A stretch of DNA of 32,000 nt from Nevskia sp. (GTDB taxonomy: Bacteria > Pseudomonadota > Gammaproteobacteria > Nevskiales > Nevskiaceae), in assembly GCA_016779605.1 (NCBI GenBank), contig JADHNH010000031.1, positions 2,125 through 34,124 on the forward strand. The letters are read 5' to 3'. Positions 2,627 through 30,187 of this stretch are shown here, piece after piece (the first letter of the stretch is position 1; each line of letters starts with the position of its first letter). The notes under the pieces were generated by a model, which worked only from the letters and a program-made list of their open reading frames with translations, was not told the origin of the DNA and ran no database searches. The position numbers were made by a program, and so were the translations under genes.

Positions 2627-3832
2627 CTAGCGGTCTGCGCTGGCCAGGATGCCGGCTTGTGCGAGGGCGCCGATGCGCGCCTCGCTGTAGCCCAGCACGC
2701 CGGAAAGCACGGCGGCATTGTGCTGGCCGAGCAGCGGCGCCGTGAGATCCGGCAGATCGGGTTGCGCCGAGAAGCGCAACGGGAACCCCGGGATCGAGAA
2801 CTGGCCGAGGACGGGATCGACGATGGTGCGGACCGTGCCGCGATCCCTGAAATACGGATGGTCGATCGCGTCGGCCGGGCTGAGCACCGGCGCCGACGGC
2901 ACGCGATGGCGCTCCAGCAGCTCCAGGGCGCTGTCCTGGTCCTTGAAGCCCGCCAGCCAGGCCTCGATGACCGGCGTCAGCTCGCGCTGGTTCTGCGCGC
3001 GCAGCGTGCCGGTCTCGAAGCGCGGGTCCCGCTTCAGGTCCGGCCGCTGCATGGCGTCGCACAGCCCCTCCCACTGGGACTGCAGGGCGAGGATCACGAT
3101 ATGGCCGCCGGGAACCTTGAAGATGCCGAACGGCGAAACCAGCGGATGATGCGGGCCGCTGCGCATCGGCACATAAGCGCCCTTGCCCAGGGAGGCGGCC
3201 TGGATCGGAATCTCCAGCATGTGGAAGACCGAGTCGACCATCGAGATGTCGAGCCACTGGCCCTGGCCGGTGCGGCTGCGGTGGAACAGGGCATAACCGA
3301 TGGCCGAGAAGGCATGAACGCCGGAGGAGACGTCGGCCAGGGAAATGCCGGCCGGCAGCGGCGGGCCGTCCGCATTGCCGGTCATGTGCATGACGCCGGC
3401 GAAGGCCTGCGCCACCCAGTCGTAGCCGGTCTTGTGCGACAGCAGGCTGTTGCGCCCATAGGCGGAAATGGACGCCATCACGAGCCCCGGGTTGAGCCGC
3501 TTGAGGTCGTCGTACGCCAGGCCGCGCTTTTCCATGACGCCGGGGCCGAAGTTCTCCACCACCACGTCGGCCTTGGCGGCCAGCTCGCGCGCGATGGCGA
3601 CGGCTTCGGGCTTGCGCAGGTCCATGCACAGGCTCTGCTTGCCGCGGTTCTGCTGCACGAAGTAACCGCTGCGGCCGTCCACCACCAGGGGCAGCAGGCG
3701 CGAGGGGTCGCCGCCCGGCGCCGGCTCGACCTTGATGATCTCGGCGCCCATCTCCGCCATCAGGCGCGTCACCGTGGGCCCGGAAAGGTACTGGGTGAAG
3801 TCGAGTACCCGGATGCCCTCGAGGATGTTCAT
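2627..3832 (-). CDS. Family III CoA-transferase (CaiB/BaiF family)
   Basis: 401 aa. Begins MNILEGIRVLDFTQYLSGPTVTRLMAEMGAEIIKVEPAPGGDPSR, the canonical family III CoA-transferase N-terminus. Length is typical. Confidence 0.92.
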   Translation of the reverse strand: MNILEGIRVLDFTQYLSGPTVTRLMAEMGAEIIKVEPAPGGDPSRLLPLVVDGRSGYFVQQNRGKQSLCMDLRKPEAVAIARELAAKADVVVENFGPGVMEKRGLAYDDLKRLNPGLVMASISAYGRNSLLSHKTGYDWVAQAFAGVMHMTGNADGPPLPAGISLADVSSGVHAFSAIGYALFHRSRTGQGQWLDISMVDSVFHMLEIPIQAASLGKGAYVPMRSGPHHPLVSPFGIFKVPGGHIVILALQSQWEGLCDAMQRPDLKRDPRFETGTLRAQNQRELTPVIEAWLAGFKDQDSALELLERHRVPSAPVLSPADAIDHPYFRDRGTVRTIVDPVLGQFSIPGFPLRFSAQPDLPDLTAPLLGQHNAAVLSGVLGYSEARIGALAQAGILASADR

Positions 3833-3845
3833 GGTCGTTGGTGGC

Positions 3846-4655
3846 TCAGATGATCTTGTGCTTGCGGCAGAACGCGGTCACCAGCCCGGCGATGAGCTTC
3901 GGGTCTTCGAACATCGGGTAGTGGCCGATATTCTTGAGGTGCAGCACCTCGGCGTTCTTGAGCAGGCGCCCGGTTTCCTCGACCAGCTCGCGCGGCACCC
4001 AGAAGTCGTCTTCGCCGCGGATCAGCAGGATCGGGCACGTCACGCCCTTGAGCCTGGCGCGAACGTCGTGCCGGGCCCAGCCTTCGAGGTCGCCCACCGC
4101 GCTGACCTGGGAATTGCGGTGCTGCCAGCGCAGCTCGGCGATCTTGTCGGCGGGGCACTTGCGGTTGAGCGATTCCGTCGCCGCCCGTTCCATCTGATCC
4201 TGCCAGCCGGGCGCCCATGACGGATGAACCATGCCGGAGGGCAGCGGGAATGTCGGCGTGCGCGCACAGCCCTCCATCGGCACGCCGGCGGCCATTTCGC
4301 GCCAATGATGGGCGGCATAATCCAGCGTGATGTCGCCGCCGATCGAGCAGCCGAGGATGACCGGCTTTTGCAGCCCGAGCGCCTGCACGAACGCGTGCAC
4401 GAACTCGGCGTGTTCGTGGATGGTGCGGTGCTGCTGCCAGTTGACCGGATAGGAGCGCGAGTGCCCGGGCAGATCCGGCGCGTAGGCATGGAAGCCGCTC
4501 TTCGCCAGCAGCGGCAGCAGGTACTGGTACTCCAGCGAACTGGCACCCGCCGTATGCACGCAGACGATGGGCCGGCCTTCGCCCAGTTCGTCGTAGAACG
4601 TCCGGGTGCCGTTGACCTTGACGTAGTGTCCGCGGATGTCTTCTGGCGTTGCCAT
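3846..4655 (-). CDS. Alpha/beta-fold hydrolase
   Basis: 269 aa. Has VCVHTAGASS (oxyanion region), nucleophile elbow G-C-S-I-G (ILGCSIGGD) and C-terminal HLKNIGHYPMFE (catalytic His region). Lies 13 nt upstream of the CoA-transferase start. Confidence 0.9.
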   Translation of the reverse strand: MATPEDIRGHYVKVNGTRTFYDELGEGRPIVCVHTAGASSLEYQYLLPLLAKSGFHAYAPDLPGHSRSYPVNWQQHRTIHEHAEFVHAFVQALGLQKPVILGCSIGGDITLDYAAHHWREMAAGVPMEGCARTPTFPLPSGMVHPSWAPGWQDQMERAATESLNRKCPADKIAELRWQHRNSQVSAVGDLEGWARHDVRARLKGVTCPILLIRGEDDFWVPRELVEETGRLLKNAEVLHLKNIGHYPMFEDPKLIAGLVTAFCRKHKII

Positions 4656-5243: not shown

Positions 5244-6344
5244 TCACGCCCGTGCGCCCAGCAGCGGAACGCCCATCTTGCGCAGCAACGGCAGGATTTC
5301 CCGTTCGAAGCGCAAGGTGTCCTTGTAATAGTCCAGGAAGATCATCAGGAAGCCGTCCATGCCGGCCTCGAACAGGTCGCGCAGCTTTTCCGCCACCTGC
5401 TCGCGCGTGCCGATCACCGGCTGCGCGCCGGCGCCCAGGGCGAACTGCTCGGCGGTGAAGTTGTCGTAGGAGCCGCTCTGCACGTTCAGGCCGCGCGCCC
5501 AGTTGTCCACGGCAACGCGGTCGATGTTGTCGAGGATGCGGCGGCGCTCCTCTTCCGCTTCCCGCTCGGTGTCGCGCCACAGCACGAAGGGGTAGCAGGC
5601 GCATTGCACGCTGCGGCCGAGCCGCTGCGCGCGCCGCTTGATGTCGGCCACCACCTCGCGCGAAGCCTCCAGCGTCGGCGGGCTGATGAAGGACCAGTCG
5701 CATACCCGCGACACCACTTCCTTGGCGTCCTCGGAGCTGCCGGCGTTGGCAATGACGGGATGCGGCTTCTGCAGCGGCTGCGGGCGCACGTAGCCGCCGG
5801 TGATCTTGTACCAGGGGCATTCGTAGTTGAAGCTGCCCGGCTCCTGCGTCCACAAGCCCTTGAGGATTTCGATGTAGGCCTCGGTGCGCCGGTAGCGCTC
5901 CGCGTGCGGCATCACCTCGATGCCCATCATGCCGAATTCCAGCTCGCTCCAGCCGCTGACGATGTTCAGCCCCCAGCGGCCCTTGCCGATGTGGTCCAGG
6001 GTGGCGCCCATCTTCGCCGTCGCCACCGGGTGGAACACCGGCACATGCACGGTGGAAAAGACCCGTATGCGCGAAGTGTTGGCCAGCAGGGCCGCGGCCC
6101 AGGTCATGGTTTCCTGCGAATTGCCTAGGTAGTCGGTCTTGCCGCCGTAGCCTTTCCACTTGGCGACCGGAAACAGGAAATCGAAGCCCGCCGCCTCCGC
6201 CGCCAGGGCGATGCGCAGGTTTGATTCGTACGTCCAGTCGTCCGGTTCGGGCTTGTAGGTGCTCATCGAATAGGCGTAGCTGCAGTTGGGCATGAACAGC
6301 CCAAGCTGCATGCGCCTGCCGTCATCGCCCGGCGTTGGTGACAT
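5244..6344 (-). CDS. LLM-class flavin-dependent monooxygenase (luciferase-like; RutA/SfnG-like subgroup)
   Basis: 366 aa. KWKGYGGKTDYL and GRWGLNIVSGW parallel RutA KLRGFGGKTEFW and GRFGVNLVTGW. GGAG lies 9 nt upstream of ATG 6344. An alternative start is ATG 6311 (MQLGLFMPN). Confidence 0.9.
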   Translation of the reverse strand: MSPTPGDDGRRMQLGLFMPNCSYAYSMSTYKPEPDDWTYESNLRIALAAEAAGFDFLFPVAKWKGYGGKTDYLGNSQETMTWAAALLANTSRIRVFSTVHVPVFHPVATAKMGATLDHIGKGRWGLNIVSGWSELEFGMMGIEVMPHAERYRRTEAYIEILKGLWTQEPGSFNYECPWYKITGGYVRPQPLQKPHPVIANAGSSEDAKEVVSRVCDWSFISPPTLEASREVVADIKRRAQRLGRSVQCACYPFVLWRDTEREAEEERRRILDNIDRVAVDNWARGLNVQSGSYDNFTAEQFALGAGAQPVIGTREQVAEKLRDLFEAGMDGFLMIFLDYYKDTLRFEREILPLLRKMGVPLLGARA

Positions 6345-6457
6345 CGAAGCTCACTCCAGATTTGCGGCGGCGCCGCTTGTTGACACGGATGAACGCGAGC
6401 GGCCGCGCGCCTGCCGGACTCCCCTGCCGCCGGCGGGCGCGCCACCCGGTGCGCGGG

Positions 6458-7672
6458 TCAATACGCCATCTCCAGCACCTCCATCACTTCGTCCACGGAT
6501 TGCACCGGCCGGGGGTTGGTGGCGACGATCATGTCGGCGATCGCGTCGGCGGCGATGGCGGGAAAGTCCTGCCGGCTCACGCCGACGTCGCGCAGGCGCC
6601 ACGGCTGATCCAGAGCCTTGACCAGCTGCAGCACGGCGTCGCGGCCGGCCTTGCGGGCGGACTCCGCATCCATGCCGGCGGTGTCGACGCCCATCAGCCC
6701 GGCGATCCAGCGCTGCTTGTCGCCGACGTGGTCTTTGTTCCAGGTCATCACGGCGTGCATCATCACGCAGGAGGTCTGGCCGTGCGGCACGTTGCAGCGC
6801 GCGCCGAGCTGATGGCCGATGCCGTGGCTGAGGCCCAGCGTGACGTTGGCCAGGCCCGATACCGACATCCACGCCGCGAGGTGCGCGCGGGTGCGGGCGG
6901 CGAGGTCGTCCGGCTGCGCCCGGCACTGGCGCAGCGTGCGCGCCAGCGTCTGCAGCGCATGGGCGGCCAGGGCGTCGGTGAACGGATGGGCGTTGCCGGA
7001 ACAGATCGCTTCGATGCAATGGTCCACCGAGCGCATGCCGGAAGACAGCCACAGCCACTGCGGCGTATCCAGGGTGAGCGCGGCGTCGAGGATGATGGCC
7101 TTGGCGGTGAGCTTGCGGTCGATGTACAGATCCTTCACCCGGCGCTTTTCGTCGGTGATGCCGACGAAGTGCGTGCATTCGCCGCCGGACAGCGTGGTGG
7201 AGATGGCGACCAAGGGGACGCAGGCGCCCTTGATGGGAGGGATCTCCAGCGTGGCGGGATATTCGAAGCGCGTGCGCATGCGTTCGAATCCGCCGGTGTC
7301 GGTGATGTTTTCCGCCAGCGCCAGGAGCACCGCCTTGGCCGTATCGTTGGGCGAGCCGCCGCCGAAACTGACCACGCCGTCCGCTCCCAGGCTGCGCGCG
7401 TAATCGGCCGCGCGCAGCACGGACCCCGCGTGCACGTGCTGCACCGTTTCGCTGAACACACCGGCGATGCGGCCCTTGGCCGCCGCCAGCACGCGGTCCA
7501 CCAGACCGGTTCTGCCGGCCAGCGAGCGCCCGGTGACGAGCACGGCGCGGCGCACGCCGTTGCTTTCCAGGATGTCCGCCAGGCTGGAGACGCTGCCGGG
7601 GCCGTAGTACACGTCGTCCAGCGGCAGCAGGGTGAAGCGCCCGGCCAGGGGCTTGTCCTCGCCAGCAAGCAT
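6458..7672 (-). CDS. Iron-containing (group III) alcohol dehydrogenase / maleylacetate-reductase-like oxidoreductase
   Basis: Track ORF is 6458..7687. The second ATG (7672, MLAGEDK) is directly preceded by GGAGGAGAGG, so it is preferred. GGGSPNDTAKAV (NAD-binding) and the His-rich metal region GLSHGIGHQLG...PHG are typical Fe-ADH motifs. Confidence 0.9.
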   Translation of the reverse strand: MLAGEDKPLAGRFTLLPLDDVYYGPGSVSSLADILESNGVRRAVLVTGRSLAGRTGLVDRVLAAAKGRIAGVFSETVQHVHAGSVLRAADYARSLGADGVVSFGGGSPNDTAKAVLLALAENITDTGGFERMRTRFEYPATLEIPPIKGACVPLVAISTTLSGGECTHFVGITDEKRRVKDLYIDRKLTAKAIILDAALTLDTPQWLWLSSGMRSVDHCIEAICSGNAHPFTDALAAHALQTLARTLRQCRAQPDDLAARTRAHLAAWMSVSGLANVTLGLSHGIGHQLGARCNVPHGQTSCVMMHAVMTWNKDHVGDKQRWIAGLMGVDTAGMDAESARKAGRDAVLQLVKALDQPWRLRDVGVSRQDFPAIAADAIADMIVATNPRPVQSVDEVMEVLEMAY

Positions 7673-7766
7673 CCTCTCCTCCGTCATTTTTGTCGCGTCG
7701 CGGTCGGCGCCAGCTCAGCGCGGTACCGTCACCTGCGCGAGCCGCCGCGCCGTGCACCGCCGTCGA

Positions 7767-8751: not shown

Positions 8752-8825
8752 CGGCATAAGCAGCAAGCGACCACCAAAGCTGCGGCCGCTTGCGGCCGCC
8801 TTGAATGATTGACGCAGGAGCAGCC

Positions 8826-9656
8826 ATGAAATTCTGGGAAACCGAGCTACGCGGCGCCGTCGCCATCGCCGCCTACTGCAACCCGCCAACCAACTACCTG
8901 GTGGCCGAGGCCACCGCCGAGCTGGCCGCGCTGATCCAGTCCTGGCGCGAGCCGGAGGTGCGCGCCGTCGTGCTGACCGGCGCCGTGCCGGAGCGTTACA
9001 TCACGCATTACAGCGTGGAGGAATTGGTGGTCTGGGGCGACGAGCCGGACAAGCTGCGCCAGCTCGCCCACGGCATGATCTACGGCTACCACACCTTGCT
9101 GCGCTCGCTGGCCTACCTGGACAAGCCGGTGGTGGCGGCGCTCACCGGCGACACCATGGGCGCGGGCCTGGAGCTGTCCCTGAATTGCGACATCCGCGTG
9201 GCGCAGCGCGGCGACTTCCGCATCGGCTTCCCCGAGGTGGCCCTGGGCATCCTCACCGGCACCGGCTCGCAGCTGCTGGCGCGCATGATCGGCCACGGCC
9301 GCGCGCTCGACTTCCTGCTGCGCAGCCGCACGGTCACGCCGCAGGGCGCGCTGGAGCTGGGCATCGTCAACGAGCTGGCGGACGACGCCCGCACGCGCGG
9401 CATCGAAATCGCGCAGGGCCTGGCGCGGCTGTCGCCGGTGTCGGTCACCGCCGCCAAGCGCTCGATCGTGCGCGGCGCCAACCTGCCGATCGAGGAAGGC
9501 CTGCGCATCGAGGCCGAGGAATGGCTCAAGACCATCGTCACGCCGGAGGCGATGGCGCTGATGCGCGACTACGTCAGCCAGCCGTTCGAGAAGCGCCGCG
9601 ACTGGGTGCAGGCGCACGGCGTGCCGCCGGCCAAGGGCGCGGCAACCGGTGCTTGA
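8826..9656 (+). CDS. Enoyl-CoA hydratase/isomerase (crotonase) family protein
   Basis: ATG 8826 is preceded by AGGAG at a 6-nt spacing (the track ORF starts at 8805). VVAALTGDTMGAGLELSLNCDIRVA and FPEVALGILTG are the crotonase oxyanion-hole motifs. Confidence 0.9.
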   Translation: MKFWETELRGAVAIAAYCNPPTNYLVAEATAELAALIQSWREPEVRAVVLTGAVPERYITHYSVEELVVWGDEPDKLRQLAHGMIYGYHTLLRSLAYLDKPVVAALTGDTMGAGLELSLNCDIRVAQRGDFRIGFPEVALGILTGTGSQLLARMIGHGRALDFLLRSRTVTPQGALELGIVNELADDARTRGIEIAQGLARLSPVSVTAAKRSIVRGANLPIEEGLRIEAEEWLKTIVTPEAMALMRDYVSQPFEKRRDWVQAHGVPPAKGAATGA

Positions 9657-9692: not shown

Positions 9693-10070
9693 TCAACGCC
9701 GGGCGCCGTTCCAATCCAGCGAAAGGCTTTGCGCCACCGCTGCAAGACGCCGGTCGCGCGTCCACAGGTGCGCGTCGCCGGCCAGGGTTGCAGCGGCCAG
9801 CAGGTGCACGTCCACATAACCGATGCCACGGCCGGCCAACCGATGCGCTTCGATGAATCCCAGCGCTTCCTCGTCGCTGGCCACGGGCGCCGCGGAGAGC
9901 TCGCGCAGCAGCGCCAGAAATTCCAGGCGGCCGGGGCCAAGGCTGCCGCAAGCCAGCTCGCCGACAACAAATGGATGGATCAGCACTTGCCCGGACTCGA
10001 GCGCGCCGGCCAATGCCGGCACGCCCTTGCGCAGGTGTTCGATCCAGACCGAGGTGTCGACCAGGATCAT
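9693..10070 (-). CDS. vapC: Type II toxin VapC (PIN-domain ribonuclease)
   Basis: 125 aa. Begins MILVDTSVWIEHLR, the PIN acidic residue context, then later GIGYVDVHLLAAA and WTRDRRL. The start overlaps the vapB stop by 4 nt. Confidence 0.9.
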   Translation of the reverse strand: MILVDTSVWIEHLRKGVPALAGALESGQVLIHPFVVGELACGSLGPGRLEFLALLRELSAAPVASDEEALGFIEAHRLAGRGIGYVDVHLLAAATLAGDAHLWTRDRRLAAVAQSLSLDWNGARR

Positions 10071-10276
10071 CGCGCCGCGGGCACGCCCCGCGGCCGCCGG
10101 CGCGGAACCGCACGCGCCTCCGGTTGGCTGCCGCCGAGGCGCGCCAGGCGGCGCGCGCTTTCCCTCTGGATCAGGGCACGCAGCCCCTCGTGCAGCAAGG
10201 CGGTGCGCTCGTCGAGGCCGGCGAGCCGCTGGGCTTCGCGCAGCAGTGCGTCGTCGAGGTTCACGGTGGTCCGCAT
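10067..10276 (-). CDS. vapB: Type II antitoxin VapB (small DNA-binding antitoxin)
   Basis: 69 aa. MRTTVNLDDALLREAQRLAGLDERTALLHEGLRALIQRESARRLARLGG is the typical antitoxin N-terminus found upstream of PIN toxins. ATGA overlap with vapC. Confidence 0.85.
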   Translation of the reverse strand: MRTTVNLDDALLREAQRLAGLDERTALLHEGLRALIQRESARRLARLGGSQPEARAVPRRRPRGVPAAR

Positions 10277-10361: not shown

Positions 10362-11297
10362 CTAAGCGAACCGCTGCTTCAGCCAGCCGCAGGCCTCGCC
10401 GATCGCCACTCGCCCGAGGTCGATGAGGCCGAAGCGCGAGAAGAAGCCGTGGTTGGCGCCGTCGTAGCGGCTGAGCTGCGTCGCCACGCCGGCCCGCTGC
10501 AGCGCGCGCGCATAGGCTTCGCCCTCGTCGCGCAGCGGGTCGTACTCGGCGGTGATCACCAGCGCCGGCGGCAGGCCGGCCAGCGACGCGGCGCGCAGCG
10601 GATTGGCGTAGGGATTGTCGATGTCGGCCGGCGCTGCCAGGTAATGGTTGGTGAACCAGGCCATGTCGGCGGCGGACAGGCCGTAGCCCTGCGCATTGTC
10701 CACCATCGAGACGGTGGGGCGGCTGTAGTGGTCGGTGGCAGGGTACACCAGCAGCTGGCCGGACAGCGCCGGGCCGCCCTCGTCGCGCAGGCGCAGCGCG
10801 GTGGCCGCGGCCAGGTTGCCGCCGGCGCTGTCGCCGCCCACCACGACGCGCCGCGGGTCGGCGCCGATGCCGGCGGCATGCGCATGCACCCAGCGGGTGG
10901 CGGCCGCGCAGTCGTCGGCGGCGGCCGGAAACTTGTGCTCCGGCGCCAGCCGGTAGTCCACCGACACCACCACGCAGCCGGCCAGGCCGCACAGCTCGCG
11001 GCACAGCGAGTTGTAGATGGCGACGTCGCCCACCACCCAGCCGCCGCCATGGCTGAACACCAGCACCGGGAACGGCCCCGTGCCGATCGGCTGGAATACG
11101 CGCAGCGGAATGCGCCCGCCGGGTCCGTCGATGGACAGGTCGCGGCTGCCGGCGATCGGCTGCGTGCTCTGCGGCAGCGCGGTGATGACCTGTGCGAACA
11201 GCTTGCGGCAGGTCTCCACGGGGAGCTGGTGGAACGGCGGGATGCCGGAGGCGGCCGCCTTGTCCAGCATGGCTCTGATTTGGGGATCCAGGGGCAT
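10362..11297 (-). CDS. Family IV (hormone-sensitive-lipase-like) carboxylesterase / alpha/beta hydrolase
   Basis: 311 aa. HGGGW oxyanion motif (VFSHGGGWVVGD), nucleophile G-D-S-A-G (VVGGDSAGGNLAA), and late DPLRDEG and HGF catalytic Asp/His regions. Confidence 0.9.
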   Translation of the reverse strand: MPLDPQIRAMLDKAAASGIPPFHQLPVETCRKLFAQVITALPQSTQPIAGSRDLSIDGPGGRIPLRVFQPIGTGPFPVLVFSHGGGWVVGDVAIYNSLCRELCGLAGCVVVSVDYRLAPEHKFPAAADDCAAATRWVHAHAAGIGADPRRVVVGGDSAGGNLAAATALRLRDEGGPALSGQLLVYPATDHYSRPTVSMVDNAQGYGLSAADMAWFTNHYLAAPADIDNPYANPLRAASLAGLPPALVITAEYDPLRDEGEAYARALQRAGVATQLSRYDGANHGFFSRFGLIDLGRVAIGEACGWLKQRFA

Positions 11298-11375: not shown

Positions 11376-11825
11376 TCAGGGCGCCGGGTCCGGCGTCACC
11401 CGCACGCGCACCGTGCGCACCGAGCTTTCGATAGTGTCGTGAGCAGGGTCCGCCCAGAACGCGCTGATGCGGTGCGGGCCGGGCTTCACCGGCAGGTCGA
11501 ACACGAACAGGTAACGCTGGCCGCCCAGCCGGATCAGCTGCTGCTGCGCCGGCATCAGCACGGTGTCGTCCACCGCCACGTGCAGATGCACGCCCACCAC
11601 CGGCGCGCTCATGGTCAGCTTGCTCATGTCGCCGGGCGTGGCGAACACCAGGGCGAGCTGCGTGCCCACCTCGGCGCCGTCCCTGGGCAGCACGATCTTC
11701 AGCGGCGGCACCGCCGGCGCTGCGGCGGGCGCTTGCCGCGCTGGCGCCTGGGCCCGCGCCGGCACCACGGCGATGATCGTCGCGGCGCCCAGGAAGGCGG
11801 ACAGGGCAAGGGCTGGAACGCGCAT
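11376..11825 (-). CDS. Small secreted protein, last gene of the pmo-cop operon (possibly DUF4399-like beta-sandwich)
   Basis: ATG 11825 is preceded by AGGAG, which overlaps the copD TAG stop. Signal peptide MRVPALALSAFLGAATIIAVVPARA|QAP. The mature part contains VVGVHLHVAVDD, reminiscent of the GHHH..D element of DUF4399. The family call is tentative. Confidence 0.65.
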   Translation of the reverse strand: MRVPALALSAFLGAATIIAVVPARAQAPARQAPAAAPAVPPLKIVLPRDGAEVGTQLALVFATPGDMSKLTMSAPVVGVHLHVAVDDTVLMPAQQQLIRLGGQRYLFVFDLPVKPGPHRISAFWADPAHDTIESSVRTVRVRVTPDPAP

Positions 11826-11835
11826 TATTTTGCTC

Positions 11836-13821
11836 CTAGTGGACATGCTCGTCGGGCGGCGGCAGGATCTGCGGCTCGCGGTTGAGCGCGGCCACCTGCT
11901 CGCGCAGGCCGGCCGGGTCGGACCATCCGTCCGCCTCCTCCTCCGGGATCCAGCGCGCGCGGATGTAGCCGAAGCGGTCGATCAGGAACGCCATGCCGTC
12001 GCGCGGAATGTCGATGCGCTGCGGATCGCCGCGGTTCGCCACGGTGCGCGACAGCAGGTCGTAGCTGCCGCGGATTTCCCCGGCGCCGCGCGTCACCACG
12101 GTATACGGCGGCGTTTCCGTGGAAGCCTCCTGCCCGACCACGATCACGGCGAATTGCGGCCAGCCGGCGGACGCCGCCGACTGCGCGAGCCGGCGCAGCC
12201 GCGCGTCGCCGCCGGGGAACACCAGCAGCACCGCGCTGACGCCGCGGAAATCCTTGAGCTGCCGCGGCGTGCCGTCGGCCGACTCGTAGTAGAAATCCGG
12301 AGCGCCCAGCCAGGGCCGGTAAGGCACCATCTTCGGCGACAGGATGCGCGCCTGGAAGCCCTGCGAGAACGCGCGCAGGAAGTTGACCAGGTCCCAGCGG
12401 TCCTCCTCGGTCAGGACATCGGCAAAGCCGGGCATTTCGCTGCGCGGGATGCCGTGGCCCATCCACCAGTACATGTCGCCGGCGGTGTGCAGCGCGGTGT
12501 GCGGCTGGCTCAGGTTCGCCGGCGGCCTGGGCAGCGGCCTGCCCGCGGCGCCGTCGCCCAGCCCGCCGCCGCCGTGGCACATCACGCAGTGCGCCTCGTA
12601 GCTGGCCTGGCCGTGGGCGATCGACACGGTCAGGTAGGCCACTTCGGAGCGCCGGTAGGTGTCCGGAAACGCCGGCACCGAGAGCTGCCAGACCAGCAGG
12701 CCGCCGATGCCGGCCAGCGCGCCGGCGCCCACCGCCAGCCGCGTGCGCAGCGGCTTGGCGCGCCCGCCGCGGGCCAGCCAGACGCCCGCGGCGAGAGCCA
12801 GCGCAGCCGCCGCGCCGATCGCGTACGGGCCGCTGGGCAGCAGCCAGATCGGCCAGGTCGCCGCCGCCGAGATGCGGAACGGCAGCCACCAGTACGGCTG
12901 GGCATGGTTGGCGGGAGTGGTCTGCCCCAGCGTGCTGGCCAGCGCCAGCACCACCAGCGCGAGCGTGAATTCGGCCGCCACCAGCGTGCCGGCGCGCCGG
13001 TACAGCAGCCCGGCCTGCGCAGGATCGCCCAGGCCGGCCAGGTAGCCGCCCCGGACACGGTTGGCGACCGCCAGCGCCGCGGCCAGCACGGCCACCTTGG
13101 CGCACACCAGCAGGCCGTAGAGGGTCCCCAGCAGATCGCCCTGGCTGGCGATGTAGCTCCAGGCCAGGGTCGCGCCGGTGGCGATGATGAGCGCAACGCA
13201 GGCCGCCGCCAGGCGCGAAAAGCGCCGCAACGCCGCGGCCGCATAGGCGCAGCGCCCGGCGTCCGGCGCGGCGGCGATGCCGCGCACCAGCGCGATCCAG
13301 GCCGGCAGCGCGCCCACCCAGACCGTCACCGCCAGGACGTGCGCCACCTGCACCGGCAGCAGATACGGCGCCTCGCTGCCCGCGGCATGGCCGGACCAGG
13401 CGCCGGCCGCGGCGGCGGCGGCCGCGGCCAGCAGCACGGCCGCCGCACGCGCCGCCGCCAGCCCGCTGCGCACGGGAATCACCGCGATCGCCAGCATAGC
13501 CGCGCCGGCGGCCATGCGCAGCGCCCAGACCTGGCCGTACTGCGTGCCGGCGGCGAACTCGCGCAGCAGCGCGGGCTGTCCCAGCAGGGCGCGGATCGGT
13601 TGCTCGAGGGTGGCGGCCGCCTGCACCGGCAGCGCCAGCGCGACGGCGGCCAGGAACAGCGCCGCCGCGGCGGCCGGCAACATGCCGCAGCGCCTGCGCC
13701 AGTGCGACACCAGGGGATCGGCGGAAGCGCCCGCCAGCGCCAGGAACACCGTCAGCCCGATCACCAGGGCCAGGCCCAGGTGCGCGCCCAGCCGCGCCAG
13801 CGCGCCGACCGCTGCGGTCAC
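11836..13821 (-). CDS. copD: CopD-family copper transport membrane protein fused to a mono-haem cytochrome c domain and a Cys-less thioredoxin-fold (TlpA/AhpC-like) domain
   Basis: GTG 13821 overlaps the copC stop (GTGA). The upstream part of track ORF 11836..14058 lies inside copC. The first ~385 aa are polytopic and hydrophobic, as in CopD. Then come CVMCH (nt 12574-12588) and a downstream GIPRSEMPGF Met-ligand region (class I cytochrome c). Then APDFYYESADGTPRQLKDFRGVSAVLLVFPGGD...GMAFLIDRFGYIRARW follows the redoxin-fold pattern but contains no Cys. Confidence 0.85.
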   Translation of the reverse strand: MTAAVGALARLGAHLGLALVIGLTVFLALAGASADPLVSHWRRRCGMLPAAAAALFLAAVALALPVQAAATLEQPIRALLGQPALLREFAAGTQYGQVWALRMAAGAAMLAIAVIPVRSGLAAARAAAVLLAAAAAAAAGAWSGHAAGSEAPYLLPVQVAHVLAVTVWVGALPAWIALVRGIAAAPDAGRCAYAAAALRRFSRLAAACVALIIATGATLAWSYIASQGDLLGTLYGLLVCAKVAVLAAALAVANRVRGGYLAGLGDPAQAGLLYRRAGTLVAAEFTLALVVLALASTLGQTTPANHAQPYWWLPFRISAAATWPIWLLPSGPYAIGAAAALALAAGVWLARGGRAKPLRTRLAVGAGALAGIGGLLVWQLSVPAFPDTYRRSEVAYLTVSIAHGQASYEAHCVMCHGGGGLGDGAAGRPLPRPPANLSQPHTALHTAGDMYWWMGHGIPRSEMPGFADVLTEEDRWDLVNFLRAFSQGFQARILSPKMVPYRPWLGAPDFYYESADGTPRQLKDFRGVSAVLLVFPGGDARLRRLAQSAASAGWPQFAVIVVGQEASTETPPYTVVTRGAGEIRGSYDLLSRTVANRGDPQRIDIPRDGMAFLIDRFGYIRARWIPEEEADGWSDPAGLREQVAALNREPQILPPPDEHVH

Positions 13822-14216
13822 TGTGGGCCGGCGGCAGGCCCCACGGTGAACCGGTACCCGTAATCGACGAGATGGCCGTCGCGGGACAGCACGTGGTACC
13901 TGAGGGTGTAAGTGCCCGGCCCGGCGGCAGGCGCCGCGGCGGTAAGGCACTTGGGATTGTCTGCCACCGCCTGCGGCGGCCCCAGCGCCAGCGGCTGCTC
14001 CTTCGCGTCCAGCAGCTTCACGGTGGAGAACTTCACTTCCACCGCCTCGTTGAAGCACAGCTCCAGCTTGTCCGGCATGCGGCTGACCACCGCCCGGCTG
14101 CCGGGAACGGCGCGCACCAGGGCGGCATGCGCCAGCACCGGCCCTGGCATCGCGCAGGCCGCGGCGACCGCCAGCAGAACGCCCAGGCCAGCGCCCCGCG
14201 GCGGCTTCCGATTCAT
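13818..14216 (-). CDS. copC: CopC periplasmic copper-binding protein (Cu(II)-site-only, C0-1-like type)
   Basis: 132 aa from the internal ATG 14216, which overlaps the upstream stop (ATGA). Signal peptide ...MPGPVLA|HAALVRAVP gives a mature N-terminal His. D-G-H near the C-terminus (SRDGHLVDYGYRFTV) matches the His1/Asp/His Cu(II) site of CopC. No Met-rich Cu(I) site. Confidence 0.9.
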   Translation of the reverse strand: MNRKPPRGAGLGVLLAVAAACAMPGPVLAHAALVRAVPGSRAVVSRMPDKLELCFNEAVEVKFSTVKLLDAKEQPLALGPPQAVADNPKCLTAAAPAAGPGTYTLRYHVLSRDGHLVDYGYRFTVGPAAGPQ

Positions 14217-14806
14217 GCCTTCGGCTTCGGTGCGCGGCCGGTCATCCGGTACAGCACCAGCGACAGCGCGACCACGATCAGAAAGTACGGGAAGTAGCGC
14301 CAATACGACTTCACGCCGACGCGGAACGGGAACACCGAGTGGTAGACCTCGCCGGTGCGCTCGTTGGTGGCATTGAGCACGCCGATGTACCAGCCCGGCG
14401 CGGAGAAGGTGTTGTCCACCGTCACCGTGCCGCGCGGGTACTTCTGCGCGTCGGTGCTGAACAGCGTCGCCGCCTTGATGTCGTCGGCGCTGCCCAGGTC
14501 CATATACATGGCGCGCTTGCCCAGGCCGTGCACGTCCTTGAGCACCAGGAACTGCACGCCCATGTCGCGCAGCGGCGAGTCGATGAAGTCCATCACGATG
14601 ATCGCGCGGCCGAGCTCCGGGATGTCCTCGCAGAACTCCTGGGTGGCGCGCAGCTCGGGCTGGTAGCCGACGAAATGCGACTTGAACGGGCCGATGTGCA
14701 TGATGCACACGTCGTCCTTCATCGACACGCCGCCATGGGCGCGCGCCTGCGCGCCGCACAGCAGCATGGCCAGCGCCAGGCCGGCGGCGAGGCTGCGCAG
14801 CCTCAT
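14213..14806 (-). CDS. Exported, C-terminally membrane-anchored protein of unknown family in the PmoD/AmoD position
   Basis: 197 aa from the internal ATG 14806, which overlaps the pmoB stop (ATGA). Signal peptide MRLRSLAAGLALAMLLCGAQARA|HGG, a soluble domain of ~140 aa, one C-terminal TM helix YFPYFLIVVALSLVLY and a basic tail RMTGRAPKPKA. A C-I-M-H cluster sits at aa 34-37. Confidence 0.8.
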   Translation of the reverse strand: MRLRSLAAGLALAMLLCGAQARAHGGVSMKDDVCIMHIGPFKSHFVGYQPELRATQEFCEDIPELGRAIIVMDFIDSPLRDMGVQFLVLKDVHGLGKRAMYMDLGSADDIKAATLFSTDAQKYPRGTVTVDNTFSAPGWYIGVLNATNERTGEVYHSVFPFRVGVKSYWRYFPYFLIVVALSLVLYRMTGRAPKPKA

Positions 14807-16032
14807 CCGAACACCGGGATCATCGGGCCGCCGACCTCCACCGGGTAGCGCTTGCCGTCGCCGTCGTAGAAGAACAGCATCACGGCGACGATGGCGTCCG
14901 GCGAGTCGATCATGGTGGTCATGCGCTCGGTTTCCCACAGCGCGTCGTCGGCGTACACCACGATGTCGCGCGTCTCGCCCGGCGCGACCGGCCCGCCGTC
15001 GACGTGCAGGGCGTCGGACGCCACCAGGTCGTCGGCGTCGGCCGGCTTGACCTGCAGCACCGAGGAATTGACGAAGCGCACGTTGCCGGCGTCGAGCTCG
15101 CCGACCGTCACCGGGCTGCTGCCCCTGTTCGTGACGGTGAGGGCCACGCGGAAGCTGCGGCCGGGGATGCGGTAGCGCGCTTCGTTCATGCGCACGTCCA
15201 GCGGCACCGCCGGGCGCTGCGCCGGCGGCGCGGCGATCTTGCCGGCCTGCAGCGCCGTGGTGATCGGCCACTTGTCGTCGGCGTACATGTAGCCGCCGAC
15301 GATCAGCGACAGCGTCAGGACCAGAAAGCCCAAGGCCACCCGGCGGTCGCCCAGCGTGATCATCTGGTCGGCGTTGGCGCCCAGCTCGGCGGCGCGGCGG
15401 AAGCGCGGCAGGATGATCGGCACCCGCAGCAGCCACCAGACGAACCAGGCCACGCCGACCACCGCCCACAGGATGGACCAGTGCACGGCGTTGGCATAAC
15501 CGAACGACTCGAGGTCGATGTCCTGGCCCAGCAGGGTCTTGGCGGTGTTGGTGAACGCCGCCTGGTCGCCGCCGATCTCCACCCACAGGCCGGGCCCGAT
15601 CAGCGGGCCAGTGTCCTTGACGTTGATCACCGGGTGGATGTGGTAGCGGCCCGGCTTGCGCGCCTTGAGCGTGATCTCGAAGTTGTACTGCAGCTCCGGG
15701 TGGAACGAGGTGGAGCGGATCATCGGCACGCCGTTGACGCGCGAGTCCAGGCGCACGAACGAGGGCCCGGGCACGCCGATGTTGAGGAACGCCGTTTCCT
15801 CCGCCGACGGGAACTGGGTGGGCCAGAAGTCCGAGGGGATGAAGCTGCCCTTCACCACCAGGATCTGGTTGACGTCCAGCTTGGTGGCCGACACCGTCAC
15901 GTCGAACCAGTGCACCGTGCGCATGCGCACCTGCGGCATCTGCGCGCGCTCGCCGTGTGCTGCGGCGAGCGGGGAGAAGCCGCCGACGCAGGCGGTGGCC
16001 AGGGCGATGGCCAGTATCTTGAGGATTTTCAT
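14803..16032 (-). CDS. pmoB: Copper membrane monooxygenase subunit B (PmoB/AmoB family)
   Basis: 409 aa. After signal peptide ...SPLAAA|HGERAQMPQVRMRTVHWFD it aligns by eye with M. capsulatus PmoB HGEKSQAAFMRMRTIHWYD. Also KARKPGRYHIHPVINV vs KARRPGDWHVHTMMNV, two central TM helices, a C-terminal cupredoxin region (RYRIPGRSFRVALTVTNRGSSPVTVGE) and the terminus PMIPVFG. Confidence 0.95.
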   Translation of the reverse strand: MKILKILAIALATACVGGFSPLAAAHGERAQMPQVRMRTVHWFDVTVSATKLDVNQILVVKGSFIPSDFWPTQFPSAEETAFLNIGVPGPSFVRLDSRVNGVPMIRSTSFHPELQYNFEITLKARKPGRYHIHPVINVKDTGPLIGPGLWVEIGGDQAAFTNTAKTLLGQDIDLESFGYANAVHWSILWAVVGVAWFVWWLLRVPIILPRFRRAAELGANADQMITLGDRRVALGFLVLTLSLIVGGYMYADDKWPITTALQAGKIAAPPAQRPAVPLDVRMNEARYRIPGRSFRVALTVTNRGSSPVTVGELDAGNVRFVNSSVLQVKPADADDLVASDALHVDGGPVAPGETRDIVVYADDALWETERMTTMIDSPDAIVAVMLFFYDGDGKRYPVEVGGPMIPVFG

Positions 16033-16042
16033 GGCAGTGGCC

Positions 16043-16795
16043 TCAAATGATCTTGCGCAGCCAGGTGGTGCGCGACACCAGAGACCCGATCCAGACCCAG
16101 AACCAGTAGCTGAGCACCGTCAGGAAGCCGGCGAACACCGCCGTCAGCGGCGTCACCACGCCGCCGAAGGTGCGCAGGGTGGAATGCTCGATGATGCGCA
16201 CGTACTCGGGAATCGCCGTGCGCACGTACTCGAAGCCCATCAGGTCGGCCACCGTCAGCATGTTGCCGTGCAGCTCCAGCGGCACGTGGTAAGCGGCCAG
16301 CAGCGGCCAGTTGAGCGGGTAGATCAGCGCACCGAACAGGTAGCCGCCGATCAGGCCGGTCCAGAACCAGCTGCGAGTCAGCACCAGCACGGTGTCCAGG
16401 ATCAGGCCCAGCGCTATGAAGGTGGACGGGAACACCATATCCATCGGGAAGCCGCCGAAGCCATGGAAGTTCATGTAGCGGCTGACCCAGGCGGCCGCGG
16501 ACAGGGCCAGGATGGTCAGCGTGCCGCCCACCGGCAGGCGCAGGCGGTCCCACAGCAGGTAGCCGAACACGCCCGGGATCACCGACAGCGCCAGCGGCGT
16601 CACCAGCGGCCACCAGCGGCGGTCGCGCCAGTCGATCCAGTAGTCCCAGTCGCCCACCAGCAGGGCGAAGTGCACGCTGAACACGGCGGCGAACAGCATG
16701 ATCACCAGCGGAATGACCAGCCAGTCCACGGTGATGTCCAGGCGGTGGCGGAAATCGGCCACCTGGGCCGGTGTATTGGTGGTGACGGCGCTCAT
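16043..16795 (-). CDS. pmoA: Copper membrane monooxygenase subunit A (PmoA/AmoA family)
   Basis: 250 aa from ATG 16795 (RBS GGAGAGG); the track ORF extends to 16912. VHFALLVGDWDYWIDWRDRRWWPLVTP, YVRTAIPEYVRIIEHSTLRTFGG and similar blocks match the PmoA/AmoA blocks HAMLTMGDWDFWSDWKDRRLW and [22 protein letters not shown]. Confidence 0.95.
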   Translation of the reverse strand: MSAVTTNTPAQVADFRHRLDITVDWLVIPLVIMLFAAVFSVHFALLVGDWDYWIDWRDRRWWPLVTPLALSVIPGVFGYLLWDRLRLPVGGTLTILALSAAAWVSRYMNFHGFGGFPMDMVFPSTFIALGLILDTVLVLTRSWFWTGLIGGYLFGALIYPLNWPLLAAYHVPLELHGNMLTVADLMGFEYVRTAIPEYVRIIEHSTLRTFGGVVTPLTAVFAGFLTVLSYWFWVWIGSLVSRTTWLRKII

Positions 16796-18113: not shown

Positions 18114-18551
18114 ATGAAACCTTCCGAACGTCCCCGCCGCGCCGCCGCCAGGCCCGCGGAACAGCGCGTCGCCGCCCGCCGCAGCCCGCTCAACGGCACC
18201 GGCCTGTTCGCCCGAACCCGGCTGCCCGCCCGCCGCAAGATCGGCGAGCTGAGCGGCACCCTGGTGCGGCTGCCCGCGGCCTGGGCGACCGTCGCCGGGG
18301 CGCGCAAGATCTACCTGGTGCAGGTCAGCGCGCGTTATGCGCTGGAATGCTCCGACGGCAACGATTTCAAGTTCCTGAACCACAGCTGCGAGCCGAACTG
18401 CTTCCTGCGGGTGTACCGCCGGCGCGTGGAGGTCTATGCCCTGCGCAGCCTCGCCGCGGGCACCGAGCTGACCGTCGACTACGGCCAGACCCCGCATCGC
18501 AACGGCATGCGCTGCACCTGCGGCGCGGCGCGGTGCCGCGGCGTGGTTTAA
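18114..18551 (+). CDS. SET-domain protein (putative protein lysine methyltransferase)
   Basis: 145 aa. RRSPLNGTGLFA (SET N-terminus), NHSCEPN (aa 89-95), ELTVDYG, and the post-SET Cys cluster C-T-C-G-AAR-C-RG at the C-terminus. Confidence 0.85.
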   Translation: MKPSERPRRAAARPAEQRVAARRSPLNGTGLFARTRLPARRKIGELSGTLVRLPAAWATVAGARKIYLVQVSARYALECSDGNDFKFLNHSCEPNCFLRVYRRRVEVYALRSLAAGTELTVDYGQTPHRNGMRCTCGAARCRGVV

Positions 18552-18878: not shown

Positions 18879-21269
18879 ATGAACGACCTCGCCCAGACAC
18901 CCGCACCCGCCACCCAGCCGCTGGACGCCGCCGAGCTGGCCCGCCTCAACGCCTGGTGGCGCGCAGCCAATTACCTCTCGGTCGGGCAGATCTACCTGCT
19001 GGACAACGCGCTGCTGCGCGAGCCGCTGCGGCCCGAGCACGTCAAGCTGCGCCTGCTCGGCCACTGGGGCACCACGCCGGGCCTCAACTTCGTCTACGCG
19101 CACCTGAACCGGCTGATCCGACGCGACGGTGTGCGCATGATCTACATCGCCGGCCCCGGCCACGGCGGGCCGGGCATGGTCGCCAACACCTGGCTCGAAG
19201 GCAGCTACAGCGAGCTGTTTCCGAACATCGGGCGCGACGCCGCCGGCATGCAGCAGCTGTTCCGCCAGTTTTCGTTTCCGGGCGGCGTCGGCAGCCATGT
19301 CACCCCCGAAACCCCGGGCTCGATCCACGAGGGCGGCGAGCTCGGCTACAGCCTGGCCCATGCCTACGGCGCGGCGTTCGACAATCCCGACCTCGTCGCC
19401 GTGTGCGTGGTCGGCGACGGCGAGGCCGAGACCGGCCCGCTGGCAACCGCCTGGCATTCGAACAAGTTCCTGAATCCGGCGCGCGACGGCGCGGTGCTGC
19501 CGATCCTGCACCTGAACGGCTACAAGATCGCCAACCCCACCGTGCTCGCCCGGATTCCGGGCGAGGAGCTGGCGAGCTTGCTCGCCGGCTACGGCTACCG
19601 GCCGCTGTTCGTCGCCGGCGAAGACCCGGATGCGGTGCACCAGCAGATGGCGGCCGCGCTGGACGATGCGTTCACCGAGATCCGCAGAATCCAGGCGGCG
19701 GCGCGGACCGGCGGTGCGGTGCAGCGGCCGCGCTGGCCCATGGTCGTGCTCAAGACGCCCAAGGGCTGGACCGGCCCCAAAACGGTGGACGGCAAGAAAA
19801 CCGAAGGCTCATGGCGCTCGCACCAGGTGCCGCTGGCCGAAGTGGCGACCAACCCGGCCCACCTGACGCAGCTCGAAGCCTGGATGCGCAGCTACCGGCC
19901 GGAGGAACTGTTCGACGAACAGGGCCGACCGCGTCCGGCGGTGACGGCGCTGGCACCCGACGGTGCGCTGCGGATGGGCGCCAGCCCGCACGCCAACGGC
20001 GGCCTGCTGCTGCGCGACCTGCGGCTGCCGGACTTCCGCGGGCATGCCGTCGAGGTGCCCCGGCCGGGCGGCCTGGAAACCGAATCGACGCGCGTGCTCG
20101 GGCGCTACCTGCGCGACGTGATGGCGCTGAATGCCGAGGCCGGCAACTTCCGCGTATTCGGCCCCGACGAAACCGCTTCCAACCGCCTGGACCCGCTGTT
20201 CGAGACCACGGCGCGCAGCTGGATGGCCGCGCTGGAGGACGGCGACGACCACCTGGCCGCCGATGGCCGGGTCATGGAGATCCTGTCCGAGCACACCTGC
20301 CAGGGCTGGCTGGAAGGCTACCTGCTGACCGGGCGCCACGGCCTGTTCTCCTGCTACGAGGCGTTCATCCACATCGTCGACTCGATGTTCAACCAGCACG
20401 CCAAGTGGCTCAAGACCAGCAAGGAAGTGCCGTGGCGGCGGCCCATCGCCTCGCTCAACTACCTGCTCACCTCGCACGTCTGGCGCCAGGACCACAACGG
20501 CTTTTCGCACCAGGATCCCGGCTTCATCGACCACGTCGTCAACAAGAAGGCCGACATCATCCGCGTCTACCTGGCGCCCGACGCCAACACGCTGCTGTGC
20601 ATCGCCGACCGCTGCCTGCGTTCGCGCAATTTCATCAACGTGGTCGTCGCCGGCAAGCAGCCGCAGCCGCAGTGGCTGGACATGGACGCCGCGATCAAGC
20701 ACTGCGCCGCCGGCATCGGCATCTGGGAATGGGCCAGCAACGACGGCGAGTCCGAGCCCGACGTGGTGCTGGCCTGCGCCGGCGACGTGCCGACGATCGA
20801 GGTGCTGGCGGCGGTGGATATCCTGCGCCGGCACGCGCCCGAGTTGCGCATGCGCGTGATCAACGTCGTGGACCTGATGACCCTGCAGCCGCACGAGGAA
20901 CATCCGCACGGCCTGTCCGACCGCGACTTCGACGCCCTGTTCACCCGCGACAAGCCGATCATTTTCGCCTACCACGGCTACCCCTGGCTGATCCACCGCC
21001 TGACCTACCGCCGCGTCAACCACGACAACCTGCACGTGCGCGGCTACAAGGAGGAAGGCTCCACCACCACGCCGTTCGACATGGCGGTGCGCAACGACCT
21101 GGACCGCTTCCACCTCGTCGCCGACGTGGCGGACCGCGTGCCCAAGCTGGCCTACCGCGCGGCCTATCTCAAGCAGCTGGTGCGCGACAAGCTCACCGAG
21201 CACCGGCAATACATCACCCGCTACGGCCAGGACCTGGAGGAGATCCGCAACTGGCAGTGGCCGTATTGA
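18879..21269 (+). CDS. xfp: Phosphoketolase (xylulose-5-phosphate/fructose-6-phosphate phosphoketolase, ThDP-dependent)
   Basis: 796 aa. [40 protein letters not shown] and [11 protein letters not shown] are the phosphoketolase signature blocks. Length is typical. Confidence 0.95.
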
Positions 21270-30012: not shown

Positions 30013-30187
30013 CGCGTCCTCCGCGCTTCGGAAATCGTTCGTTTTTTTGCCGGCTTATTTTGACGGCAACCTGTTCCGGCGACAGCCTAGCACGCGCATC
30101 CGGGAGCGCGAGCGGGGATCGCAGGCTTGACCACGCAAGCCGGATTTTGAGCTAAGCTGAAACGGCACAGGCCCAGGAGATCCAATC

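Follow-up and report, generated by a model that had tools for sequence, protein, structure and literature searches.

A PmoD/AmoD-family protein of the Cx9HxnC subclass encoded between xmoB and copC in Nevskia sp.

The stretch of Nevskia sp. DNA considered here (contig JADHNH010000031.1; 32,000 nucleotides, called the window in its full length) has a guanine-plus-cytosine (GC) content of 69% and carries on its minus strand the genes xmoC, xmoA, and xmoB of a copper membrane monooxygenase (CuMMO), an open reading frame (ORF) at 14213..14806, copC, copD, and a last gene for a protein of 149 or 156 amino acids. The ORF, which translates into a 197-amino acid protein, is the primary concern of this study; its neighbours xmoC, xmoA, xmoB, copC, and copD are all recognised by Pfam. 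An earlier note on this DNA had placed the ORF directly after pmoB and before copC, with 4-nt overlaps on both sides, and both overlaps can be read in the sequence: the xmoB stop TGA (14805..14803) and the ATG of the ORF (14806..14804) form the ATGA at 14803-14806, while its stop TGA (14215..14213) and the copC ATG (14216..14214) form the ATGA at 14213-14216. The chain of overlaps goes on between copC and copD (GTGA, with GTG the likely copD start) and between copD and the last gene (11 nt). Five consecutive genes (11376..16032, minus strand) thus have overlapping stops and starts, which implies that translation of all the accessory genes is coupled to that of xmoB. GC by codon position is 0.62/0.42/0.95 in the ORF, and its third-position value (GC3) matches that of the flanking xmoC, xmoA, and xmoB (0.92-0.97), as expected of a real gene. 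The mechanical ORF of xmoA reaches 16912 (289 amino acids), but the PF02461 match spans only its residues 57-285 and orthologues have 226-256 amino acids, so the likely start is Met40 (nt 16795), about 39 codons inside. No second PmoD copy was found in the window by tblastn.

The PmoD/AmoD slot and topology claimed for the protein by the earlier note are both borne out. Hydropathy gives hydrophobic stretches at residues 1-21 and 167-193, and the AlphaFold model (mean predicted local distance difference test score, pLDDT, 86.7, rising above 90 across residues 71-160) places a beta-rich domain between helices at 2-17 and 168-189, with a basic tail after the second helix. The signal peptide and the transmembrane helix were called from hydropathy, the model helices, and a conserved AxA-H cleavage site. 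Cleavage between ARA and HGG, also proposed earlier, is supported by the homologues, 116 of 119 of which have A, G, or S at position 23 together with H at position 24. A lipoprotein signal at LLC17G was considered and rejected, since the lipobox is non-canonical and homologues do not keep Cys17. Two cysteines, 25 residues apart, are all that the mature protein contains. The basic tail reads RMTGRAPKPKA, and homologues have a Y-R-x-T/S-G-R motif after the helix.

Scans of the 197-amino acid protein against Pfam-A and NCBIfam gave no match, which reflects missing family models rather than a lack of relatives and probably explains the annotation in databases: the identical GenBank protein (locus tag ISP90_07320, from the metagenome-assembled genome of an uncultured Nevskia sp.) is named hypothetical, as are all listed homologues that have a source name. 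Against the PDB, phmmer returns a single match, PmoD from Methylocystis sp. Rockwell (6CPD_A, E-value 4.3e-12), with an alignment over query residues 32-164 that covers nearly the entire crystallised domain, and a profile built from 26 homologues matches the 6CPD chain with an E-value of 1.3e-20. The predicted fold agrees. The top PDB match of the AlphaFold model in Foldseek is again 6CPD (E-value 1.6e-10, target template-modelling (TM) score 0.86-0.87), with a root-mean-square deviation of 2.3 Å over 132 columns at 26% identity, and the runner-up is about six orders of magnitude weaker. Homology to 6CPD, two invariant cysteines, a predicted signal peptide with a single C-terminal transmembrane helix, and linkage to a CuMMO are features of the PmoD/AmoD family as described in 2018, and the window protein has all four. 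The earlier note could assign the protein to no family; the PmoD profile search and monomer structure prediction that it had suggested both lead to 6CPD, and that statement does not stand. The ORF almost certainly encodes a PmoD/AmoD-family protein, and its motif places it in the Cx9HxnC subclass.

Fisher et al. (2018) described five PmoD classes, Cx7MxHxnC, Cx8MHxnC, Cx8MxnC, Cx9HxnC, and CxnC, and ascribed 22.2% of PmoDs to Cx9HxnC, whose members often lie close to copC (PMC6189053). In the phmmer and profile alignments to 6CPD, C34 pairs with Cys41, H44 with His51, and C59 with Cys65, and K42 stands at the position of Met49. The motif reads C34-IMHIGPFKS-H44 ... C59, or C-x9-H-x14-C, that is, C1-x9-H ... 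C2 with no Met at C1+8 or C1+9. The CuA-forming class, Cx7MxHxnC, shares the Cys at C1 and the His at C1+10, but its Met at C1+8 (Met49) is missing here. The earlier note was therefore literally right that C-x7-M-x-H is absent (K42), although Cys and His are kept at the same spacing (H44 = C34+10). The AmoD-type motif Cx8MHxnC is also excluded, since C1+9 is Ser43 and not Met. The canonical CuA cupredoxin motif of cytochrome oxidase subunit II and N2O reductase, Hx34Cx3Cx3Hx2M within one domain, does not occur in the window protein and is generally missing from PmoD sequences.

Conservation was counted in the 119 close homologues and in 110 distant representatives, the latter from an HMMER scan of 1.84 billion cluster representatives with 700 matches at E ≤1e-3; looking up the members of their clusters yielded no informative names. 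C34 and C59 are each kept in 119/119 close and 109/110 distant sequences, H44 in 118/119 and 87/110, and H24 in 116/119 and 98/110. Position 42 is R (99/119) or K (8/119) in close homologues and variable among the distant ones, and position 43 is A in 111/119 close homologues but M in 55 (the AmoD-type Cx8MH sequences) and A in 34 of the distant ones. The cluster C34-I-M36-H37, to which the earlier note had drawn attention together with His24, H44, and C59, is another matter. Position 36 is M in 78/119 and L in 40/119 close homologues and mostly L in distant ones; position 37 is H in just 1/119, with R in 69 and K in 42, and mostly R, K, T, or Q at a distance. C-I-M-H was accordingly rejected as a conserved site. 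On these alignments the conserved set is H24, C34, H44, and C59, with the C-I-M-H cluster peculiar to the window sequence.

Three characterised or catalogued proteins are useful for comparison. The 6CPD protein, Met49242_1452, is a CuA-forming, in-operon PmoD of the Cx7MxHxnC class. It shares with the window protein the cupredoxin-like domain, signal peptide, C-terminal helix, and the residues Cys41, His51, and Cys65, and its gene also lies directly after pmoB and before copC-copD; however, Met49 is replaced by Lys42 in the window protein, Met42 and Met44 by Ile35 and His37, and the position called H1, the first mature residue, is Glu in 6CPD but the conserved His24 here. MettrDRAFT_0370 from Methylosinus trichosporium OB3b is of the same family, topology, and motif as the window protein, with His as H1 and Lys in place of the Met, but its gene lies outside the pmo operon (neighbourhood code 'none'). 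This Cx9HxnC protein has been purified and binds 1.40 +/- 0.18 Cu per protein, with two type-2 Cu(II) species by electron paramagnetic resonance (EPR) and no CuA (PMC6189053). It is the biochemically tested counterpart of an in-operon Nevskiales and Burkholderiales clade, the window protein included, that is known here from sequence. The third is Ga0070002_104146 of Solimonas aquatica DSM 25927 (198 amino acids, positions 165511-166107 of a 334,756-bp scaffold), recorded in the supplementary tables of PMC6189053 as PmoD, Cx9HxnC, 'in CuMMO operon', group 'other', neighbourhood 'cabdcd'. The same gene was recovered in the present survey (locus L032; NZ_FOFS01000004.1, 334,756 bp, match 165577-166089), and its product is 56% identical to the window protein. 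It shares the H1...C-x9-H...C motif, the topology, and the gene order pmoC-A-B-D-copC-copD, so this orthologue had been catalogued before, along with its class and operon layout. Cx8MH proteins, of the AmoD type (Cx8MHxnC; orf5/amoD of ammonia oxidisers) and with the A-H-G-G mature N-terminus, rank among the nearest of the distant relatives in the profile search, at an E-value of about 1e-57; they have Met at C+9, where the window protein has Ser43 and 111/119 close homologues have Ala.

The linkage to CuMMO genes holds in all the related loci examined. On all five contigs inspected gene by gene (Panacagrimonas perspica DSM 26377, a Hydrogenophaga metagenome-assembled genome, and three metagenome contigs) the homologue lies directly after xmoB, and in a tblastn survey of 85 loci every homologue has the end of xmoB no more than about 230 nt upstream. 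A copC-copD pair follows in about 30 of the 85 loci, often with the gene for the 149/156-amino acid protein after it, and in Polaromonas the copC-copD genes are a few kb away from the pmoD homologue. One AmoD-type Cx8MH relative (P0126, 6001..6618 of a metagenome contig in ENA ERZ26167216) lies directly after xmoCAB and has genes for a multicopper oxidase, a MerT-like protein, and an HMA-domain protein downstream in place of copCD; the copper-handling genes that accompany PmoD homologues therefore appear to differ between lineages. The hosts include Nevskiales (Nevskia, Panacagrimonas, Solimonas, Sinimarinibacterium, Polycyclovorans, and Stagnimonas), Burkholderiales (Polaromonas, Rhodoferax, Hydrogenophaga, and Aquabacterium), Porticoccaceae, Macondimonas, and many unnamed Gamma- and Alphaproteobacteria, and none of the 80 genome loci carries the genus label of a methanotroph or ammonia oxidiser. 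The Polaromonas and Rhodoferax strains are presumably those of Rochman et al. (2020). Published sources call the function of the CuMMOs of Solimonas, Polaromonas, and Rhodoferax unknown.

Given the conserved Cys and His residues, the window protein is very probably a copper accessory protein, and we hold with good confidence that a PmoD of the Cx9HxnC subclass explains the observations as a whole. Translational coupling to xmoB would yield the PmoD-family protein, with CopC and CopD co-translated as well in the lineage of the window. A Sec signal peptide would export it and be cleaved before His24, and the C-terminal helix would tether it to the inner membrane with the cupredoxin-like domain of about 140 residues facing the periplasm. 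From what is known of the family, copper would be held at a surface cluster near the N-terminus of the domain by Cys34 and His44, possibly with His24. Cys59 would lie beside Cys34 and could form a disulfide with it, by analogy with the 6CPD crystal, in which Cys41 and Cys65 are disulfide-bonded and His51 is near Cys41. Since Lys or Arg stands where CuA-forming PmoDs have their axial Met, a mononuclear, type-2-like site binding Cu(II)/Cu(I) is the likely outcome, rather than a dimeric CuA centre. In this scheme the protein would be a copper-handling accessory of the CuMMO that hands over or retains copper between the CopC/CopD import pair encoded just downstream and the metal sites of XmoB and XmoC, a role to which we give somewhat less than an even chance. 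When pmoD is deleted, Methylosinus trichosporium OB3b shows a growth defect that depends on copper. One report claims that heterologous expression of a verrucomicrobial PmoD enabled acetone oxidation by particulate methane monooxygenase (pMMO), which shows functional coupling outside methane oxidation without revealing the mechanism. The CuMMO that the protein would serve belongs to a host outside the methane- and ammonia-oxidising genera; for its substrate, the neighbouring genes allow no more than a guess at a short-chain hydrocarbon or ketone.

Several points weigh against this explanation. Copper binding by the window protein and its immediate clade would follow from what relatives do, and even characterised PmoDs are still variously proposed to donate electrons, load copper, or stabilise the structure. 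The clustering of H24, C34, H44, and C59 in space is likewise a prediction from homology to 6CPD, and pLDDT is lower at residues 21-30 (60) and 51-60 (67). Also, roughly two in three of the related loci do not have copC and copD adjacent to the gene, so a hand-off from CopCD is not a universal mechanism.

A further proposal concerns the N-terminal histidine. The predicted start of the mature protein at a conserved His recalls the histidine-brace proteins (CopC, the CuB site of PmoB, and the AA10 lytic polysaccharide monooxygenases, LPMOs), in which the amine and imidazole of such a His bind one Cu together with a second His; this is a resemblance and not a matter of membership. In H1-bearing PmoDs, the window protein included, the amine and imidazole of His24 could form a histidine brace with His44 and/or Cys34, and PmoD would then be a dedicated periplasmic copper donor and a near-universal fourth gene of CuMMOs in proteobacteria outside the methane- and ammonia-oxidising genera too; we consider this doubtful. 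Published constructs of H1-bearing PmoDs began at that His but with a vector-derived Ser-Met in front, so a brace would have been masked and was never testable in them. Nothing that joins PmoD with a histidine brace was found in the literature, and sequence searches detected no homology between the window protein and histidine-brace proteins of the LPMO, CopC, or PmoB type. AA10 LPMOs are the next specific fold matches after PmoD, but the matches are weak (TM score 0.35-0.43, E-value 6e-4 or worse); LPMO membership was rejected, and the likeness of the predicted folds may be taken as a lead, not a finding.

If the copper-handling accessory is not the correct explanation, the protein could be mainly a structural or assembly subunit, its helix docking on XmoC or XmoA, its domain packing on XmoB, and its copper incidental. 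Stabilisation is one function that PmoD has been suggested to have, both the helix and the Y-R-x-T-G-R motif behind it are conserved, and a gene directly after xmoB in 85/85 loci, with stop/start overlaps wherever junctions were read, suggests stoichiometric co-production. However, according to a review, structures of pMMO and ammonia monooxygenase in native membranes attribute the additional helix to other small ORFs, and modelling PmoD into those structures brought no strong support for its association; the invariant Cys and His also argue that metal or redox chemistry matters. This alternative is improbable. The operon position, which is that of the CuA-forming PmoD of alphaproteobacterial methanotrophs, would also suit a homodimeric, CuA-forming protein that transfers electrons to reduce the monooxygenase, on the model of the Methylocystis sp. 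Rockwell protein; both the Cys that bridges and the His that serves as a ligand are kept, and the downstream CopD with its cytochrome c domain would provide a periplasmic redox partner encoded nearby. The Met49 equivalent, however, is Lys in the window protein and Arg or Lys in 107/119 homologues, and a Met49Ala substitution abolishes CuA in PmoD. Since CuA formation is limited to the Cx7MxHxnC class and the tested Cx9HxnC protein with the same Lys binds copper without forming CuA (PMC6189053), a CuA centre is very unlikely here. The two cysteines, which alone are invariant throughout the family and are disulfide-bonded in the 6CPD crystal, could instead cycle between thiol and disulfide to keep copper or the cysteines of the CuMMO or CopC reduced, without serving as ligands. 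Against this, all five tested PmoD homologues bound copper, at 0.5-1.9 Cu per protein (PMC6189053), the copper site needs Cys41 but not Cys65, and the fold is not thioredoxin-like, which makes a thiol-disulfide protein more improbable still. Finally, a previously unrecognised family in the PmoD slot with a new site of C-I-M-H and His24, for which the lack of Pfam and NCBIfam matches, the 'hypothetical' database copies, and the literal absence of Cx7MxH could be cited, has next to no chance of being right and is refuted by the sequence, profile, and fold matches to 6CPD, by the poor conservation of H37 and M36, and by the orthologue already listed as PmoD. Of the earlier proposal of a new accessory copper protein, the copper accessory part is thus retained as very probable and the newness is not, as family, motif class, and orthologue had been described (PMC6189053).

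Table 1. Features of the gene string and of the rest of the window.
Feature	Position (nt)	Strand	Evidence or remark
xmoC, CuMMO subunit C, 268 aa	17015..17821	-	PF04896, E 9.8e-79
xmoA, CuMMO subunit A, about 250 aa from likely start Met40	16043..16795	-	PF02461, E 3.4e-78
xmoB, CuMMO subunit B, 409 aa	14803..16032	-	PF04744, E 1.1e-117
pmoD-family gene, 197 aa, Cx9HxnC subclass	14213..14806	-	Translation, phmmer, profile, Foldseek, GC3
Predicted signal peptide, residues 1-23 (MRLRSLAAGLALAMLLCGAQARA), cleavage between ARA and H	14738..14806	-	Hydropathy peak, model helix 2-17, conserved cleavage site
His24 codon, predicted first mature residue ('H1' of Fisher 2018 tables)	14735..14737	-	Conservation; PMC6189053 supplementary tables
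Predicted periplasmic cupredoxin-like beta-sandwich, residues 24-165	14312..14737	-	AlphaFold model; best PDB fold match 6CPD
Putative metal-binding segment C34-x9-H44-x14-C59 (CIMHIGPFKSHFVGYQPELRATQEFC)	14630..14707	-	Alignment to 6CPD; conservation
Predicted C-terminal transmembrane helix, residues 168-189	14240..14305	-	Model helix; hydropathy maximum, windows starting 167-175
Basic, predicted cytoplasmic tail, residues 190-197 (TGRAPKPKA region)	14216..14239	-	Read from sequence
copC, periplasmic copper-binding protein	13818..14216	-	PF04234, E 1.1e-18; start overlaps pmoD stop
copD fused to cytochrome c domain and a C-terminal region without family match	11836..13821	-	PF05425, PF00034, PF13442, NF033808
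Exported Ig-like protein, 149/156 aa by start chosen, no family match	11376..11846	-	Last gene of string; overlaps copD stop by 11 nt
Abhydrolase_3 esterase	10362..11297	-	
VapB antitoxin (PF09957) and VapC PIN-domain toxin (PF01850), overlapping genes	9693..10276	-	
Enoyl-CoA hydratase	8805..9656	+	
Iron alcohol dehydrogenase	6458..7714	-	
Luciferase-like monooxygenase	5244..6350	-	
CoA-transferase III	2627..3877	-	
Small bacterial SET-domain protein	18114..18551	+	PF00856; divergent, upstream of xmoC
Phosphoketolase	18879..21269	+	XFP, E 9e-175; divergent, upstream of xmoC
Flavin monooxygenase, FMO/BVMO-like, 800 aa	25275..27677	+	
Acyl-CoA dehydrogenase	28789..30054	-	

Other genes of the window are also of note (Table 1). 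The fusion of copD with a cytochrome c domain has a further C-terminal region of about 200 amino acids without a family match, and the same architecture, at 639-673 amino acids, also occurs in Panacagrimonas and a metagenome relative; a haem domain on a copper importer beside a CuMMO may serve in Cu(II) reduction or as an electron relay. The last gene encodes a protein that matches nothing by sequence in Pfam, NCBIfam, or the PDB (DUF4399 reaches just E 0.15). Its 32 homologues are 'hypothetical' wherever named, and it is found after copD in many related loci. Residues M72, H80-x-H82, M91, W124, D126, and H129 are invariant, and most homologues carry a His-rich H-D/E-H-H-x-H-H sequence just after the signal peptide, which the window copy does not have. 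The predicted fold is a generic Ig/FnIII-like beta-sandwich that matches neither PCuAC nor CopC; at the corresponding end position of the Methylosinus pmo operon, Fisher et al. list pCuAC. This protein may be a periplasmic copper protein, so far uncharacterised and arguably more novel than the product of the pmoD-family gene. The VapBC pair lies about 1.1 kb beyond the operon, on the far side of the esterase gene. As context only, the esterase, flavin monooxygenase, alcohol dehydrogenase, luciferase-like monooxygenase, CoA-transferase III, and beta-oxidation-type genes (enoyl-CoA hydratase, acyl-CoA dehydrogenase) of the window would fit a route of subterminal alkane or ketone oxidation. In related loci, genes for a pyrroloquinoline quinone-dependent alcohol dehydrogenase with cytochrome c (PQQ-ADH-cytochrome c), a GMC oxidoreductase, and an aldehyde dehydrogenase lie beside xmoCAB.

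For the field little changes, since the family, the motif class, and the operon layout of the orthologue are already on record, and the immediate gain is that about 130 'hypothetical proteins' can be annotated cleanly. PmoD/AmoD has been called specific or unique to methane and ammonia oxidisers, both in the main text of the 2018 paper and in a 2026 review. An in-operon clade outside the methane- and ammonia-oxidising genera sits awkwardly with that claim: a PmoD with His1 and Cx9H follows xmoB in every locus surveyed and forms a large clade in other Proteobacteria. The novelty that is left is this wide distribution of the family outside the methane- and ammonia-oxidising genera, together with the conserved, predicted mature N-terminal His. 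Because culturable heterotrophs are among the hosts, genetic study of PmoD function becomes possible in them.

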